From IMG/VR virus record IMGVR_UViG_2603880148_000010: a DNA stretch of 6,628 bases; one strand, given 5' to 3'. The stretch is from a virus (lineage: Duplodnaviria > Heunggongvirae > Uroviricota > Caudoviricetes). The stretch's first letter is position 1; the number at the start of each line of letters is the position of its first letter. The translations under genes were made by a program, and so were the position numbers. The notes beneath the pieces were generated by a model, which ran no database searches, was not told the DNA's origin, and was given only the letters and a program-made list of their open reading frames with translations. Below are positions 1 to 6,628 of this stretch, piece by piece.

Positions 1-155
1 CACCGACGTAGCCCCACTGTTCGTCCATTTCCGCGCAGACGATGACGTCACTGCCCGGCTGTATGCGCGAGGTTACCGACTGCGGCCTGAGTTTTTTAAA
101 TGGCGGAAAATCGTGTTGAGGCCAACGCCCATAATGCGGGCGGTTGCCCGGCATC
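1..155 (-). CDS. insB: IS1 transposase InsB reading frame (5' part only; 3' end beyond window start); normally expressed as the InsAB' fusion by -1 frameshifting
   Basis: Minus-strand frame translates from ATG at 153-155 as [16 protein letters not shown]... and continues without a stop to position 1. It overlaps the insA 3' end in the -1 frame at the A6C slippery motif. Confidence 0.85.
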
Positions 156-348
156 CAACGCCATTCATGGCCATATCAATGATTTTCTGGTGCGTACCGG
201 GTTGAGAAGCGGTGTAAGTGAACTGCAGTTGCCATGTTTTACGGCAGTGAGAGCAGAGATAGCGCTGATGTCCGGCAGTGCTTTTGCCGTTACGCACCAC
301 CCCGTCAGTAGCTGAACAGGAGGGACAGCTGATAGAAACAGAAGCCAC
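73..348 (-). CDS. insA: IS1 InsA (transposition repressor / N-terminal part of the InsAB' transposase), 91 aa
   Basis: ORF translation [43 protein letters not shown]...[11 protein letters not shown] is the canonical InsA, with a CxxC...CxxC zinc finger and helix-turn-helix; TAA stop at 73-75. Confidence 0.93.
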
Positions 349-380
349 TGGAGCACCTCAAAAACACCATCATACACTAA

Positions 381-403
381 ATCAGTAAGTTGGCAGCATC
401 ACC
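381..403. repeat. IS1 terminal inverted repeat (insA-proximal end, IRL); element/chromosome junction at 403|404
   Basis: Minus-strand sequence GGTGATGCTGCCAACTTACTGAT ends exactly where the ynfA reading frame resumes. Confidence 0.85.
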
Positions 404-687
404 AAATTATTGGATGCTTTCTGCCCTGGTTGTGGTTAAAACGAAACGCCAGTATCTGGCTGTTGCTTCCGGCGGGGATTTCACTGGCGCTGTTTGTCTG
501 GTTGTTAACGTTGCATCCAGCGGCGAGTGGGCGTGTTTACGCGGCTTATGGTGGCGTTTATGTCTGCACGGCGTTGATGTGGCTGCGCGTTGTGGATGGC
601 GTGAAACTGACTCTTTATGACTGGACGGGTGCGTTGATTGCGCTTTGCGGCATGTTGATCATTGTTGCGGGCTGGGGGCGCACGTAG
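404..687 (+). pseudogene. ynfA: ynfA (UPF0060 family small inner-membrane protein) 3' fragment, disrupted by IS1 within codon 15
   Basis: In-frame translation from 406 reads [93 protein letters not shown], which I recognise as YnfA residues ~16-108. The first ~15 codons and the native start are absent and are replaced by the IS1 end. The ORF track's 'M' at 430 is a TTG that corresponds to an internal Leu. Confidence 0.85.
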
Positions 688-689
688 GA

Positions 690-892
690 ACATAAATCCA
701 TTTTATCAATAAGATAAGAGGAAGTGTCAGCTGACAAAAGGTATTCTATTTCATCTTTTGTCAACCATTCACAGCGCAAATATACGCCTTTTTTTGTGAT
801 CACTCCGGCTTTTTTCGATCTTTATACTTGTATGGTAGTAGCTCAGTTGCGTAGATTTCATGCATCACGACAAGCGATGCAAGGAATCGAAC
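690..892 (+). promoter_or_regulatory. rspA upstream regulatory region (putative promoter; exact elements not resolved)
   Basis: A 200-bp AT-rich non-coding gap precedes rspA. It contains a TATACT -10-like hexamer (823-828), an 8-bp palindrome GTGATCAC (796-803) with a Dam GATC and a TGTGA CRP-like half-site (795-799), and a Shine-Dalgarno AAGGA (881-885) 7 nt before the ATG. The operon is known to be regulated, but the site assignments are my inference. Confidence 0.3.
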
Positions 893-2107
893 ATGAAGAT
901 CGTAAAGGCTGAAGTTTTTGTTACCTGTCCGGGGCGTAATTTCGTCACATTAAAAATCACCACTGAGGACGGTATTACGGGCCTTGGGGATGCCACCCTC
1001 AATGGACGTGAGCTTTCCGTGGCCTCTTATTTGCAGGATCACCTTTGTCCGCAGCTTATTGGTCGCGATGCGCACCGTATCGAAGATATCTGGCAGTTTT
1101 TCTATAAAGGTGCTTACTGGCGTCGCGGTCCGGTTACGATGTCGGCCATTTCAGCGGTTGATATGGCGCTGTGGGATATTAAAGCCAAAGCTGCCAACAT
1201 GCCGCTTTACCAGTTACTCGGCGGCGCGTCTCGTGAAGGGGTGATGGTTTATTGCCATACCACCGGTCACAGTATTGATGAAGCTCTGGATGATTATGCC
1301 CGTCATCAGGAGCTGGGATTCAAAGCCATCCGCGTGCAGTGCGGAATCCCTGGTATGAAAACCACCTACGGCATGTCGAAAGGTAAAGGTCTGGCTTATG
1401 AACCCGCAACCAAAGGACAGTGGCCGGAAGAGCAGCTGTGGTCGACGGAGAAATACCTCGATTTCATGCCGAAATTGTTTGACGCGGTACGTAACAAGTT
1501 TGGTTTTAATGAACATTTGCTGCATGACATGCACCATCGCTTAACGCCTATTGAAGCGGCGCGCTTTGGTAAAAGCATTGAAGATTATCGCATGTTCTGG
1601 ATGGAAGACCCGACGCCTGCAGAAAACCAGGAATGCTTCCGTCTCATTCGCCAACATACCGTCACACCCATCGCAGTGGGTGAAGTCTTCAACAGCATCT
1701 GGGACTGCAAACAACTGATTGAAGAGCAACTCATCGATTATATCCGCACCACGCTGACCCATGCAGGCGGAATTACCGGTATGCGCCGGATTGCCGATTT
1801 TGCTTCGTTGTATCAGGTACGTACTGGCTCACACGGTCCTTCCGATTTGTCACCAGTCTGCATGGCTGCGGCGCTGCACTTTGATCTGTGGGTCCCCAAT
1901 TTCGGTGTCCAGGAGTACATGGGTTATTCCGAACAAATGCTCGAAGTCTTCCCGCACAACTGGACTTTCGATAACGGCTATATGCATCCGGGAGACAAAC
2001 CGGGTCTTGGCATCGAATTCGATGAAAAGCTGGCGGCGAAATATCCCTATGAACCTGCTTATCTGCCAGTCGCACGTCTGGAAGATGGCACGCTGTGGAA
2101 CTGGTAA
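893..2107 (+). CDS. rspA: RspA, starvation-sensing protein; enolase-superfamily D-mannonate dehydratase-like enzyme (404 aa)
   Basis: Translation from ATG 893 ([43 protein letters not shown]...[11 protein letters not shown]) matches RspA as I know it. SD AAGGA sits at proper spacing. The upstream in-frame ATG at 860 in the ORF track lacks an RBS and would add 11 non-native residues. Confidence 0.93.
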
Positions 2108-2118
2108 GGAGTAAGGTA

Positions 2119-3138
2119 ATGAAAAGCATTTTAATTGAAAAACCGAATCAACTGTCGATTATCGAACGTGAAATACCCACCCCGTCAGCGGGTGAAGTAC
2201 GAGTAAAAGTGAAACTTGCCGGAATTTGTGGTTCAGATAGCCATATTTACCGTGGGCATAATCCTTTTGCGAAATATCCGCGCGTCATTGGTCATGAATT
2301 CTTTGGCGTCATTGATGCGGTGGGTGAAGGTGTGGAAAGCGCCAGAGTCGGTGAACGCGTTGCTGTCGATCCAGTGGTCAGCTGTGGGCATTGCTATCCG
2401 TGCTCTATAGGTAAGCCGAACGTTTGTACGACACTTGCTGTATTAGGTGTGCACGCTGACGGTGGTTTCAGTGAATATGCCGTGGTTCCGGCAAAAAATG
2501 CGTGGAAAATTCCTGAAGCAGTGGCCGATCAATATGCGGTGATGATCGAACCTTTTACCATTGCGGCTAACGTTACCGGTCATGGTCAACCGACTGAAAA
2601 TGATACCGTTCTGGTTTATGGTGCCGGTCCAATCGGCCTGACGATCGTTCAGGTATTAAAAGGCGTCTATAACGTTAAAAATGTGATTGTTGCCGATCGC
2701 ATTGATGAACGACTGGAAAAAGCGAAAGAGAGCGGGGCTGACTGGGCGATTAATAACAGCCAGACACCGCTTGGCGAGATTTTCACTGAAAAAGGCATCA
2801 AGCCGACATTAATTATCGATGCGGCTTGTCATCCTTCTATCCTGAAAGAGGCCGTAACGCTGGCTTCTCCAGCGGCACGTATTGTATTGATGGGCTTCTC
2901 CAGTGAACCGTCTGAAGTGATTCAGCAAGGAATTACCGGAAAAGAACTCTCTATTTTCTCTTCACGCTTAAATGCAAATAAATTCCCGGTCGTTATCGAC
3001 TGGTTAAGTAAAGGGTTAATTAAACCAGAAAAATTAATTACCCATACGTTTGATTTCCAGCATGTTGCTGATGCCATTAGTTTATTTGAACAGGATCAAA
3101 AACATTGCTGCAAAGTCTTACTCACTTTTTCTGAATAA
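2119..3138 (+). CDS. rspB: RspB, zinc-dependent medium-chain alcohol/sugar-acid dehydrogenase family protein (339 aa)
   Basis: Translation from ATG 2119 (MKSILIEKPNQLSIIEREIPTPSAGEVRVKVKLAGICGSDSHIYRGHNPF...) with a strong SD AAGGAGTAAGG just upstream. It carries MDR hallmarks: catalytic-zinc motif CGSDSH, GHE motif (VIGHEFFGV), structural-zinc Cys cluster CGHCYPCSIGKPNVC, and a Rossmann GxGxxG (VYGAGPIGL). It starts 12 nt after the rspA stop, so the two form an operon. Confidence 0.93.
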   Translation: MKSILIEKPNQLSIIEREIPTPSAGEVRVKVKLAGICGSDSHIYRGHNPFAKYPRVIGHEFFGVIDAVGEGVESARVGERVAVDPVVSCGHCYPCSIGKPNVCTTLAVLGVHADGGFSEYAVVPAKNAWKIPEAVADQYAVMIEPFTIAANVTGHGQPTENDTVLVYGAGPIGLTIVQVLKGVYNVKNVIVADRIDERLEKAKESGADWAINNSQTPLGEIFTEKGIKPTLIIDAACHPSILKEAVTLASPAARIVLMGFSSEPSEVIQQGITGKELSIFSSRLNANKFPVVIDWLSKGLIKPEKLITHTFDFQHVADAISLFEQDQKHCCKVLLTFSE

Positions 3139-3151
3139 TACCAATAACGGC

Positions 3152-3182
3152 GAGTAAGTAGTACGCATCTTACCTCTTTTTT
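3152..3182 (+). terminator. Weak candidate intrinsic terminator downstream of rspB
   Basis: A short stem GTAAG (3154-3158) / CTTAC (3169-3173) with a 10-nt loop is followed by CTCTTTTTT (3174-3182). The stem is only 5 bp and AT-rich, so this is tentative. Confidence 0.2.
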
Positions 3183-3195
3183 AGAGATAACCATT

Positions 3196-3306
3196 ATGAC
3201 AATAGAAAAACACGAAAGAAGCACTAAGGATTTGGTGAAAGCAGCAGTATCGGGATGGCTGGGCACTGCGCTTGAATTTATGGATTTCAAGAGTCATGCG
3301 TGTTAA
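3196..3306 (+). pseudogene. ydfJ: Orphan 36-codon ORF resembling the N-terminus of a metabolite:H+ symporter (MHS)-type MFS transporter; probable 5' remnant of a gene split by prophage integration
   Basis: ATG 3196 translates as MTIEKHERSTKDLVKAAVSGWLGTALEFMDFKSHAC*. The AxxG-x-L-x-E-(W/F)-x-DF segment is the conserved N-terminal motif of ProP/KgtP/ShiA-type transporters, and the frame stops 5 codons later, right at the AT-rich prophage edge. Naming it ydfJ rests on my recollection that the reference K-12 genome has ydfJ split by the Qin prophage next to rspB; this is unverified here. Confidence 0.55.
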
Positions 3307-3325
3307 CTATTTGATAAATATTAAA

Positions 3326-4606
3326 TTAATTTTTCATTGCTTCGTTATGGGGCATGGTTGGGGCAAACTCGCTTAACTGTGTATTTAACAAAGCTACCTG
3401 TGCATTATTGTTTTCAGACATCCATTTTCCGTATACCTGAAATACCATTTGCGCATCTGCATGGCCCATCTGGTTTGCTATAAATGCCGGGTTAGCACCA
3501 GCTGTCAGCGACCAGCAGGCATAAGTATGTCTCGACTGATATGATTTTCGATGGCGGAGTCCGGCACGTTTTATCGCTGCGTCCCACATCTGCCTTATTG
3601 AGTCAACGGTAAAATGGTCACCATAATTTTTTACTCTCGCTGACACTTCAGGTTGAAAAACAAAGGTGCATTTTTGTTTTTCTGTTCTGCCATACTCTCT
3701 GAGGTGAACATCAATGATATGCTCTTTGCTCAGTCTCGTTAATGTCATCTGACTCCGGAGAGCGTCGATTGCTGGCTTAATAAGATGAATGACCCGATTG
3801 GTTCCCGCCTGTGTTTTTGGTACCGTGAAACGGTCTTTTGCTAAATTTCTCCTGATCATCATTGTTCCATTTTTCAGATCTATGTCCTCCCATCCAAGTG
3901 CACACAGCTCACCAGGGCGAACGCCAGTATAAACAGAAACACACCATAAATTTTTTGCTTGCTGATTTCTGCACGCATCGATAAGACGGATAAATTCCTC
4001 CCGCGAAAGAGGATCCGGAATGGTTCTTGATTCCTTTAATGGCGAGATCCCCTTAAACGGGTTATCTGCCAGGTAACCGTTATCAACACCAAACTGGAAC
4101 ACGGCGTTAAGATTTGTCATGTAATTATTTACAGTTACAGCCGATCTCCCTGGTTGTGTAACAATATAGTTACTTTTGGGGATCTGGTATCCAGTCAGTA
4201 GCTCTTTACGAACCTCCAGTAATTTTTCTTTATTAATCGATGAGGCAAGATTTTTTTCACCGATTATGCTCAGGATATTTTTGATGACGGCACGGTATGT
4301 GTTGAGTGATGTTTTTGCGACTTCAGTTTCTTTCAGTGCCAGAAATTTTTCAGCCAGTTCTTTTATGGTTAAATCTTGTCGGGCCTCACCAAATTTTTCC
4401 AGATTGCGTGAGGAGGGAAACTGTTTTGCATAGTCGAAAACACCAGTTTTTATTGCGTAACAAACAGAGGCGCGTAGCTCACCTGCAACGCGCCTGTTTT
4501 TTGCTGTGTCAGGAACCCCCAGGTTTTCCCTGACTCTTACGCCTTTATAAACAAACCAGATACGTAATTTCCCTCCATGGTTTTCCACGCCTGTCGGATA
4601 TTTCAT
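3326..4606 (-). CDS. Phage integrase, tyrosine site-specific recombinase (about 426 aa)
   Basis: Long minus-strand ORF with tyrosine-recombinase box I (TGVRPGELCALGWEDID) and box II (SRHTYACWSLTAGANPAFIANQMGHADAQMVFQVYGKW), giving an R...H-x-x-R...Y catalytic set. I prefer the ATG at 4606 (MKYPTGVENHGGKLRIWF..., preceded by purine-rich GAGAGAAG) over the ORF-track start at 4621, which has no SD. It sits at the prophage edge next to the host junction. Confidence 0.92.
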   Translation of the reverse strand: MKYPTGVENHGGKLRIWFVYKGVRVRENLGVPDTAKNRRVAGELRASVCYAIKTGVFDYAKQFPSSRNLEKFGEARQDLTIKELAEKFLALKETEVAKTSLNTYRAVIKNILSIIGEKNLASSINKEKLLEVRKELLTGYQIPKSNYIVTQPGRSAVTVNNYMTNLNAVFQFGVDNGYLADNPFKGISPLKESRTIPDPLSREEFIRLIDACRNQQAKNLWCVSVYTGVRPGELCALGWEDIDLKNGTMMIRRNLAKDRFTVPKTQAGTNRVIHLIKPAIDALRSQMTLTRLSKEHIIDVHLREYGRTEKQKCTFVFQPEVSARVKNYGDHFTVDSIRQMWDAAIKRAGLRHRKSYQSRHTYACWSLTAGANPAFIANQMGHADAQMVFQVYGKWMSENNNAQVALLNTQLSEFAPTMPHNEAMKN

Positions 4607-4640
4607 TTCAACTTCTCTCATTAGTTAGTGTGGCTTTTAG

Positions 4641-4892
4641 TCAAGTAAGATGACGTCTTGGTCTTGCTGATGCCTGGCGCTCAATCCAGCGATCAATTTC
4701 TTCCAGGTTGTAAAAGCATGGACTGTTATCCCATGGCATACCGTCATGAGCGACATGCTTATATTCCCTTCCTTCCATAAACGATTTTTCCCGGGCCTTT
4801 TTTAACGTACCTTTTTTTATTCCTTTCAGCGCAATTAACTGCTCTTCGGATACCCATTTGCCGGGAGAGACAATCATGATTACTTCGCTCAT
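4641..4892 (-). CDS. Excisionase-like / small DNA-binding protein (83 aa), the xis position of the int-xis module
   Basis: Small basic ORF (MSEVIMIVSPGKWVSEEQLIALKGIKKGTLKKAREKSFMEGREYKHVAHDGMPWDNSPCFYNLEEIDRWIERQASARPRRHLT) immediately upstream of int and co-directional with it. Size, position and charge fit prophage excisionase-like proteins. The start is ambiguous: ATG 4892 or the in-frame ATG at 4877 (MIVSPGKW...). Confidence 0.7.
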   Translation of the reverse strand: MSEVIMIVSPGKWVSEEQLIALKGIKKGTLKKAREKSFMEGREYKHVAHDGMPWDNSPCFYNLEEIDRWIERQASARPRRHLT

Positions 4893-4920
4893 CGATTTCT
4901 TTATCTCTTACATCAGACGA

Positions 4921-4955
4921 GCGCCGGTTGCAGAATACCAGTCACAACCGGCGAC
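4921..4955. other. Inverted repeat in the intergenic gap between the exonuclease gene and xis
   Basis: CGCCGGTTG (4922-4930) and CAACCGGCG (4946-4954) form a perfect 9-bp stem around a 15-nt loop. On the transcribed minus strand no U-tract follows, so it is not a classical intrinsic terminator. Confidence 0.5.
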
Positions 4956-4964
4956 AGTTGAACA

Positions 4965-6628
4965 TTAAGAATCAGCCTGACTCGGGATCAGTTTTTGCCA
5001 GATAGCTGAAACGTATTTTGCCTGGTAACGGGCGTCATCAAGTGCATTATGGCGCTCACCTTCGAATGGAATAGCCGTTCTGGCATCGAAGTCTATGGCT
5101 TTCCCCAGCTCAACGATTGTGCGTACATCGCGATCGTTGTAGTAACGCCACGGGCAGGGGATTCCCTGCCGTTCGTATGAACGGCGCAAAATCGTGTTGT
5201 CGAAGTTGGCTCCATTTCCCCAGACATGAACAAAAAATTCACCGGAGTTTTCGTCGATAAATTCCCGCAATTGTAACAGTGCATCATCTAACGGGATTTC
5301 ATCGGTCATAATGGCAGATTGCGCTTCGCGTGATTGCTTAAGCCACCATTTAATGGTGTCCCGATCAATGACTCCGCCAGCAGTTTCCAGATCGATAGTC
5401 TTACTAAATTCCGGTCCCATATCTCCGGTTTGCGGATCGAAAAATATTGCACCTATTGAGATGATCGGGGCATCAGGATTTTTTCCCATGGTTTCAAGGT
5501 CGATCATTAGATGGTCACACGTCCTGCTGGTGGATGTGATTTCGTGATGACCGTTCACCTTAATTGAGTGATCTGCCGTCTCGCCAGTTTCATTATCGCT
5601 ATTGTGATGCTGATTGCCGCCAGTGTTCTCCTTGTGCTGATGCGCAGTGCCTTCCATTTCCTCCGGATCATTTTCCTGAACTTCAGGCTGATTCTCTCCA
5701 TCGAATATTTCCTGGTATGTTGCGTCACCCATCACCGCACCACAATCAGGGCAGTTGCCGCCACCGCTATGACCGCAGGCGGTGCAGATCTTTTCCGGTT
5801 CCTGTTGCACTACTGGTTCAGGTTGTTTCGTTTCTGGCTCGTTTTGTTGCGTATTTGGGCTGTTTTGTTCCGCTTTCTGGTCGTTCTGTTCCGTTTCTTG
5901 CTGGTTCTGGTTCACAGAATCGCGGGTCTGGATCCCCTTAACCCATTTCGGATCATTCGGGTCGCTAATCCCTTCAACAAATTCACCACGTGATACTGCA
6001 AGCAGTTCATCGGCGTCAGGCTGGCTGATATTGGCTGCCTGCATAATTTTGTTTACTTCGTCAGCGGTAACTTTTACTGACCCTGGTTGTGCGGTCGTGT
6101 CAGATGCACCAGTATTTTGTTGTGAACCTGAGTATGTACCGTTTTTGCGGGCGAAATATTCTTCTTTCGTGATTTCAGTAGCCCCAGCAGACAGCGCCTT
6201 ATCCAGACCAGAAAGTTTGTTTGCGCGACCGTATTTTTCGCCATCCTTGTCGGTGAAGAGGAAGTAGAACGGCCCCTCACGTTCTACAGATGGTTCGACT
6301 TCCACTTTGCATTCGGTTTTTTCGTTGTCTGGAATTGCCGTTTCCACTGCATCAGTTTCTGGTACTGGCGACGAGAGAGTATCAGTTGCGCTCTGATTTG
6401 TTCCTTCATCTTCAAACACGCCCTTTGTAGTCAGGTATTCAGTAATGTATTTGTTCAGTGCCACAGGGTCTTTGTGAATGTCGATCGGACGTTCACGGAC
6501 AAGGCCAAAAATAGTCTGGCGGTCGTAGCGAAGGGCATCAGGCTGTTTGCGCATTGATGCCGAGATACGCTTCCAGTCTTCGCGGTCGTTGTCGATAACT
6601 TCATTTTTTGCCCAGCGATGGATGCTGC
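4965..6628 (-). CDS. Large prophage protein (5'-partial; >553 aa visible) with a C-terminal DnaQ-like DEDDh 3'-5' exonuclease domain, a CxxC-x7-CxxC zinc-ribbon-like motif, a His-rich tract and a Q/E/N-rich repeat linker
   Basis: The minus-strand ORF stops at TAA 4965-4967. The frame stays open upstream of the ORF-track ATG (6554) to the window edge (...SIHRWAKNEVIDNDREDWKRISAS-MRKQPD...) and no SD precedes 6554, so the true start is outside the window. The C-terminal ~180 aa carry the three DEDDh motifs: Exo I MIDLETMG, Exo II VWGNGANFDNT, Exo III HNALDDARY. Confidence 0.8.
   Translation of the reverse strand, partial: SIHRWAKNEVIDNDREDWKRISASMRKQPDALRYDRQTIFGLVRERPIDIHKDPVALNKYITEYLTTKGVFEDEGTNQSATDTLSSPVPETDAVETAIPDNEKTECKVEVEPSVEREGPFYFLFTDKDGEKYGRANKLSGLDKALSAGATEITKEEYFARKNGTYSGSQQNTGASDTTAQPGSVKVTADEVNKIMQAANISQPDADELLAVSRGEFVEGISDPNDPKWVKGIQTRDSVNQNQQETEQNDQKAEQNSPNTQQNEPETKQPEPVVQQEPEKICTACGHSGGGNCPDCGAVMGDATYQEIFDGENQPEVQENDPEEMEGTAHQHKENTGGNQHHNSDNETGETADHSIKVNGHHEITSTSRTCDHLMIDLETMGKNPDAPIISIGAIFFDPQTGDMGPEFSKTIDLETAGGVIDRDTIKWWLKQSREAQSAIMTDEIPLDDALLQLREFIDENSGEFFVHVWGNGANFDNTILRRSYERQGIPCPWRYYNDRDVRTIVELGKAIDFDARTAIPFEGERHNALDDARYQAKYVSAIWQKLIPSQADS
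5822..5913. repeat. About 4.5 imperfect 21-bp tandem repeats inside the exonuclease CDS (in-frame heptapeptide repeats)
   Basis: Plus-strand units GTTGTTTCGTTTCTGGCTC / GTTTTGTTGCGTATTTGGGCT / GTTTTGTTCCGCTTTCTGGTC / GTTCTGTTCCGTTTCTTGCTG / GTTCTGGTTC... encode (minus strand) ...QQETEQN-DQKAEQN-SPNTQQN-EPETKQP... Confidence 0.7.

Follow-up and report, generated by a model that had tools for sequence, protein, structure and literature searches.

We consider it highly probable that, in the window (the whole 6,628-nucleotide stretch of DNA analysed here), an IS1 element sits in codon 15 of ynfA, that the allele is null, and that the neighbouring rspAB genes are essentially unaffected. The case is an ordinary strain-specific IS1 knock-out, in which the element, the target gene and the mechanism, insertional inactivation, are already known; only the insertion site, unrecorded in the collections searched, is new. 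To the right of the element, positions 404 to 6628 hold the ynfA remnant, rspA and rspB and then three genes of a Qin-like prophage, for integrase, excisionase and exonuclease. The features at the left edge of the window are as follows.

Positions 1 to 403, minus strand: the first 403 nucleotides of IS1 (IS1B-like), numbered from its IRL end; the rest lies beyond the left edge of the window.
Positions 73 to 348, minus strand: insA, an open reading frame of 91 amino acids with a GTG start, lying just inside the IRL.
Positions 91 to 97, minus strand: A6C motif, read in the sequence as AAAAAAC; site of the programmed -1 frameshift that gives InsAB'.
Positions 369 to 396, minus strand: IS1 promoter in the IRL, CTGCCA-16-TATGAT, pointing left into insA and away from ynfA and rspA.
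Positions 381 to 403, minus strand: left terminal inverted repeat of IS1 (IRL), 23 bp, with its outer end at 403; exact reverse complement of GGTGATGCTGCCAACTTACTGAT.
Positions 404 to 412, no strand assigned: AAATTATTG, which for a simple insertion would be the right copy of the duplicated target site; 8 of 9 bases are A or T.
Positions 404 to 687, plus strand: what remains of ynfA, beginning at base 2 of codon 15 and running to its stop, without start codon, ribosome-binding site, residues 1-14 and Glu15.

A full IS1 measures 768 bp and includes insB', with the DDE domain, and the right repeat, IRR. Positions 1-403 match many E. coli IS1 copies, whose annotation reads IS1B-like or IS1 family, at every base (403/403), and chance is excluded for this identity because the perfect match stops exactly at the IS1 terminus. 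IS1-like sequence is widespread, occurring in 4,966 of 5,426 complete E. coli genomes. The plus-strand letters of 381-403 are ATCAGTAAGTTGGCAGCATCACC, and the same IRL end is found in the IS1 copies of strains PM7, E41 and K71-77; the outer ends of the element begin with GGTGATGCTGCC... at the IRL and, as in full copies from other genomes, with GGTAATGACTCC... at the IRR. The promoter within the IRL is the sole sigma-70-like site on either strand of positions 1-1000 in a promoter scan, a method that here means consensus matching only.

InsA scores 41 bits against the IS1/IS1595 zinc-binding domain model (cut-off 28) and covers positions 1-81 of the IS1 transposase model with 90 bits, which lies under the whole-protein cut-off of 100 because InsA alone was scored. 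A "programmed frameshift" note, in keeping with the A6C motif, is present on annotated IS1 copies in other genomes. Compared with the known IS1 isoforms of E. coli and Shigella (IS1A, IS1B and IS1R), the IRL, its promoter, insA, the A6C motif and the start of insB' are identical over the visible 403 bp. An AT-rich target is likewise shared with known copies; the element itself thus carries no difference, and its site of insertion alone sets it apart.

The junction can be read to the base. The first-pass annotation had placed the IRL end at 403, with ynfA resuming mid-codon at 404, and this is exactly what we find, the entry point being the second base of codon 15 (Glu). Intact ynfA of relatives begins ATG ATT AAA ACA ACG TTA CTA TTT TTT GCT ACT GCG CTG TGT GAA ATT ATT GGA TGC, and the window from 404 reads AA ATT ATT GGA TGC, joining the intact reading at base 2 of codon Glu15. 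The IRL end of IS1 therefore abuts nucleotide 44 of ynfA, and the k-mer that defines the right junction is GGCAGCATCACCAAATTATTGGATGC.

YnfA is a small SMR-like efflux protein of four helices. Positions 404-687 are identical to ynfA of E. coli strain 600029 and of K-12, and the residues encoded by 406-687 align with positions 18-107 of the 109 in the YnfA model NF002586 (UPF0060, PF02694) at 137.4 bits, above the cut-off of 114. Absent is the complete 108-residue protein with its start, TM1 and conserved Glu15, since the gene has lost codons 1-14 together with base 1 of codon 15. The remnant is a pseudogene fragment. As had been proposed from a first reading, the native start and first codons are cut off: promoter, ribosome-binding site, start and 14 codons are parted from the remaining 93. 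The claim that an internal TTG without a ribosome-binding site is the only start left also stands, in that the TTG at 430 is the first in-frame start and has no Shine-Dalgarno sequence upstream. None of GGAG, GAGG or AGGA lies upstream of any of the eleven in-frame candidate starts, and the scan of 1-1000 returned no plus-strand promoter.

An IS1-ynfA fusion protein was considered and ruled out. Inside IS1, the ynfA frame meets a stop at 313-315 and offers no ATG, GTG or TTG before the TTG at 430, so no fusion is possible. Because the first hydrophobic segment of YnfA spans approximately residues 4-25 in a hydropathy plot, the break lies midway through TM1. The inactivation of ynfA suggested by the first-pass annotation is hence supported: with start, ribosome-binding site and fusion frame absent and the Glu15/TM1 part gone, ynfA is very probably inactive.

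The loss of Glu15 bears directly on function. In Shigella flexneri, the E15A substitution in YnfA lowers ethidium and acriflavine efflux by 30-38% and reduces resistance, and Glu15 has been proposed as a substrate or proton site, corresponding to Glu14, which is essential in EmrE (PMC9295541). With IS1 in codon Glu15 and neither a replacement start nor a fusion frame at hand, no functional YnfA would be made, and, judging from the sequence, the strain very probably carries a ynfA null allele. We regard it as extremely improbable that the remnant is translated from TTG 430 into 85 amino acids that retain some YnfA activity, although the open reading frame is present, three of the four predicted helices are kept and low-level readthrough across IS1 is conceivable. 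Neither a promoter nor a Shine-Dalgarno sequence serves that frame; its product would lack half of TM1 as well as Glu15, when E15A by itself impairs function; and the loss of one helix in four would probably upset membrane insertion and dimerisation of a dual-topology protein.

A null allele of ynfA would resemble the ynfA knock-out of S. flexneri 1c (Sarkar et al., PMC9295541), in which the same SMR-like transporter is lost; that mutant is an engineered deletion, whereas the E. coli case is a natural IS1 disruption recognised here from sequence. By analogy, the expected phenotype is a modest rise in sensitivity to cationic compounds such as ethidium and acriflavine, and the cationic dyes and biocides that YnfA exports may be slightly more harmful to the strain. 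For annotation, the locus is a ynfA pseudogene interrupted by IS1, which matters little beyond the description of the strain.

Two lesions of ynfA that do not involve an insertion sequence were also seen. In GCA_054664835.1 (locus L016, near its position 9990), TGG has become TAG, a stop at W25, and in CP020107.1 (locus L019, near its position 8320) a 1-bp deletion, CTTTCTG to CTTCTG, shifts the frame. The gene appears to have been lost repeatedly in E. coli, and a dispensable ynfA fits these independent events.

The closest relative of the DNA beyond the element is E. coli 600029, a human stool isolate from Bangladesh. Over 404-6628, the two differ by 2 SNPs in 6,225 bp: one at 1808, synonymous and the only difference in rspA, and one at 4147, G159R in the integrase. 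Comparison with a strain that has an uninterrupted ynfA had been recommended by the first-pass annotation, and 600029 provides it, carrying an intact ynfA preceded by ynfB and speG. Because so near a relative keeps the gene whole, the insertion is best seen as recent and lineage-specific, and its junction serves as a marker that distinguishes the strain from 600029 and other close relatives. The exact right junction is absent from the 5,426 complete E. coli genomes, from the GTDB species representatives, from the JGI metagenomes and from IMG/VR. The predicted left junction, built as the ynfA 5' end plus AAATTATTG (...GCGCTGTGTGAAATTATTG; in a longer form ...GCTACTGCGCTGTGTGAAATTATTG) followed by the IRR, has no match among complete E. 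coli genomes, none of which covers at least 80% of the query. In the genomes that exact-protein look-ups with the remnant calls, the partial exonuclease, the integrase and RspB brought up, ynfA was either intact or truncated in an unrelated way.

Two public Logan contigs with truncated ynfA calls were examined as possible IS1 junctions and rejected. In the contig with an 85-residue call (L001), the first 29 nucleotides resemble the 3' end of the integrase by eye, and the contig with a 74-residue call (L017) starts with a Nextera adapter, CTCGGAGATGTGTATAAGAGACAG (1-29). The foreign 5' ends of both, positions 1-33 in L001 and 1-29 in L017, are assembly artefacts.

How the junction arose can be argued from its own letters and from other IS1 copies nearby. 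The target-site duplication of IS1 is 9 bp, rarely 8 bp, and the element prefers AT-rich targets. The candidate duplication named by the first reading, AAATTATTG on the right flank, is correct in letters and coordinates, and of the 319 nine-mers in ynfA it is one of the 12 richest in A and T. This fit to the IS1 preference favours a primary insertion at the junction. Within about 2 kb of the site, IS1 has inserted independently in four complete genomes, PM7, K71-77, E41 and EC05, which split 2:2. In PM7 it lies in rspA as a simple insertion whose 9-bp duplication, AAAGGTGCT, is perfect, and in K71-77 it lies in speG, likewise as a simple insertion with a 9-bp duplication, GAGATTGAG. In E41, IS1 in rspA is joined straight to hokD of the Qin prophage with no duplication, marking a deletion, and in EC05 two IS1 copies bracket ynfB-ynfA-rspA, again with no duplications, marking a rearrangement. 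All four involve the same element in the same speG-ynfB-ynfA-rspAB neighbourhood, but their target genes and positions differ from ynfA codon 15; PM7 and K71-77 bear the 9-bp duplication expected here, while E41 and EC05 carry deletion or rearrangement scars. Since the nearby copies show both outcomes, simple insertion and rearrangement are both realistic at this locus, and the present junction adds one more case of IS1 activity around speG-ynfA-rspAB, where both occur.

On balance, we think it likely that IS1 simply transposed into AAATTATTG, in which case a second copy of these nine bases would lie at the far end of the element; such an event would have been recent and would have taken place in an E. 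coli lineage very near 600029. A possible but less probable account is that IS1 here marks a deletion, an inversion or recombination between IS1 copies, so that the DNA to its left is not the ynfA 5' end and no target duplication exists; ynfB, speG and their neighbours may then have been deleted or moved. Deletions and inversions next to IS1 are among its known effects (PMC9330008), and E41, with its IS1-hokD joint, and EC05, with its two IS1 copies, supply instances at the same locus, both without duplication. Set against this are the simple insertions of PM7 and K71-77, the position of the junction in one of the most AT-rich nine-mers of ynfA, as for a primary insertion, and the normal ynfB-ynfA order in the closest relative. 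It is very improbable, in our assessment, that the junction instead arose during assembly, with a copy of the repeat IS1 wrongly joined to a contig. The absence of the junction from every other genome and metagenome searched would suit a mis-join, multi-copy IS1 often breaks assemblies, and the two truncated-ynfA contigs from public data proved to be artefacts. The break, however, falls exactly at the last base of the IRL and in an AT-rich target, a signature of transposition unlike a random mis-join, and a mis-join would be expected along shared sequence, of which ynfA and IS1 have none.

The region to the right of the remnant, which holds the rspAB operon and its control elements, comprises the following features.

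Positions 688 to 892, plus strand: spacer between ynfA and rspA, intact, with the rspA control region; 100% identical to K-12 MG1655.
Positions 795 to 799, plus strand: CRP half-site TGTGA (as defined in PMC8249747 and PMC7567609).
Positions 824 to 833, plus strand: RspR box ATACTTGTAT, operator type ATACnnGTAT (as defined in PMC8249747 and PMC7567609).
Position 863, plus strand: mapped transcription start site of rspA (C), 30 bp upstream of the ATG.
Positions 893 to 2107, plus strand: rspA, intact, 404 amino acids; D-galactonate dehydratase family model at 820 bits, ManD at 744 bits.
Positions 2119 to 3138, plus strand: rspB, intact, 339 amino acids; PRK10083 at 695 bits.

The distance of about 490 bp from the IS1 end to rspA given in the first-pass annotation is right, with 490 bp separating it from the rspA ATG at 893. 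Its suggestion that outward transcription from IS1 could perturb rspAB, however, is not supported: it is the IRL end that faces rspA, and the promoter within it drives insA leftwards. Positions 404-900 are 100% identical to K-12 MG1655; this stretch includes the CRP site, the RspR box and the mapped promoter of rspA (795-863), none of which comes closer to the IS1 end than 390 bp. The rspAB genes form an autonomous unit with a 2.3-kb, rspAB-only transcript that starts from their own transcription start site under control of CRP and RspR (YdfH) (PMC8249747, PMC7567609).

The IS1 inverted repeat carries an outward -35 element, which can form a hybrid promoter if a -10 is suitably spaced (PMC8764528, PMC9330008). 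Here, the outward candidate combines TTGGCA (390-395, the known IS1 -35, 5/6 of the consensus) with GATGCT (413-418, 3/6) across 17 nucleotides, for a total of 8/12. No plus-strand promoter in 1-1000 passes the scan threshold, the TTGGCA/GATGCT pair falling below it, and a strong hybrid promoter at the junction was rejected both by the scan and by the manual count of hexamer matches. Since the promoter of IS1 points the other way, the junction offers no usable hybrid promoter and the native promoter and operators are kept, expression of rspAB should stay essentially unchanged; the operon would run from its own promoter and operators, with the promoter of IS1 directed away from it.

A measurable change in rspAB expression, whether through a hybrid promoter, read-out from IS1 or blocked readthrough from the ynfA promoter, seems to us unlikely. 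Its appeal lies in the documented ability of the outward -35 to create hybrid promoters, in the good match of TTGGCA to the consensus and in the fact that a strong terminator between ynfA and rspA was not found. The best -10 at the 17-nt spacing, however, matches at only three positions, and where a -10 was not optimally placed in the mBio study, no increase in transcription followed: osmB fell and ugd was unchanged (PMC8764528). The orientation of the IS1 promoter and the intact CRP- and RspR-controlled unit downstream also count against such a change. Quite improbable, taken as a single proposal, is that either a weak TTGGCA/GATGCT promoter, starting near 425, reads through the remnant into rspAB, or IS1 forms the end of a larger removal or move of speG-ynfB. 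If it were true, the hybrid promoter would give this starvation-sensing operon an input that bypasses RspR and CRP, and either this effect or the loss of the efflux protein could have led to selection of the insertion.

The remainder of the window belongs largely to the prophage.

Positions 3326 to 4621, minus strand: integrase of the Qin-like prophage.
Positions 4641 to 4892: excisionase.
From position 4965, minus strand: YdfE-type exonuclease, occupying 4965-6628 of the window.

The Qin-like prophage sits inside ydfJ, after approximately codon 31, with its junction near 3288; agreement between the window and genomes that lack the prophage extends 150 bp beyond the stop of rspB and breaks off at TTTATGGATTTC. 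The rspAB operon is thus flanked on both sides by mobile-element disruptions, ynfA::IS1 on the left and ydfJ::prophage on the right. The open reading frame of 529 amino acids at 4965-6554 was considered as a truncated exonuclease, relatives of which have 823 residues, and dismissed: the region is colinear with and identical to that of 600029, and the gene runs off the end of the window. At 4147, the integrase allele of the window, R159 (G159 in 600029), is the common one, the exact protein being found in 391 blocks of the public collection.
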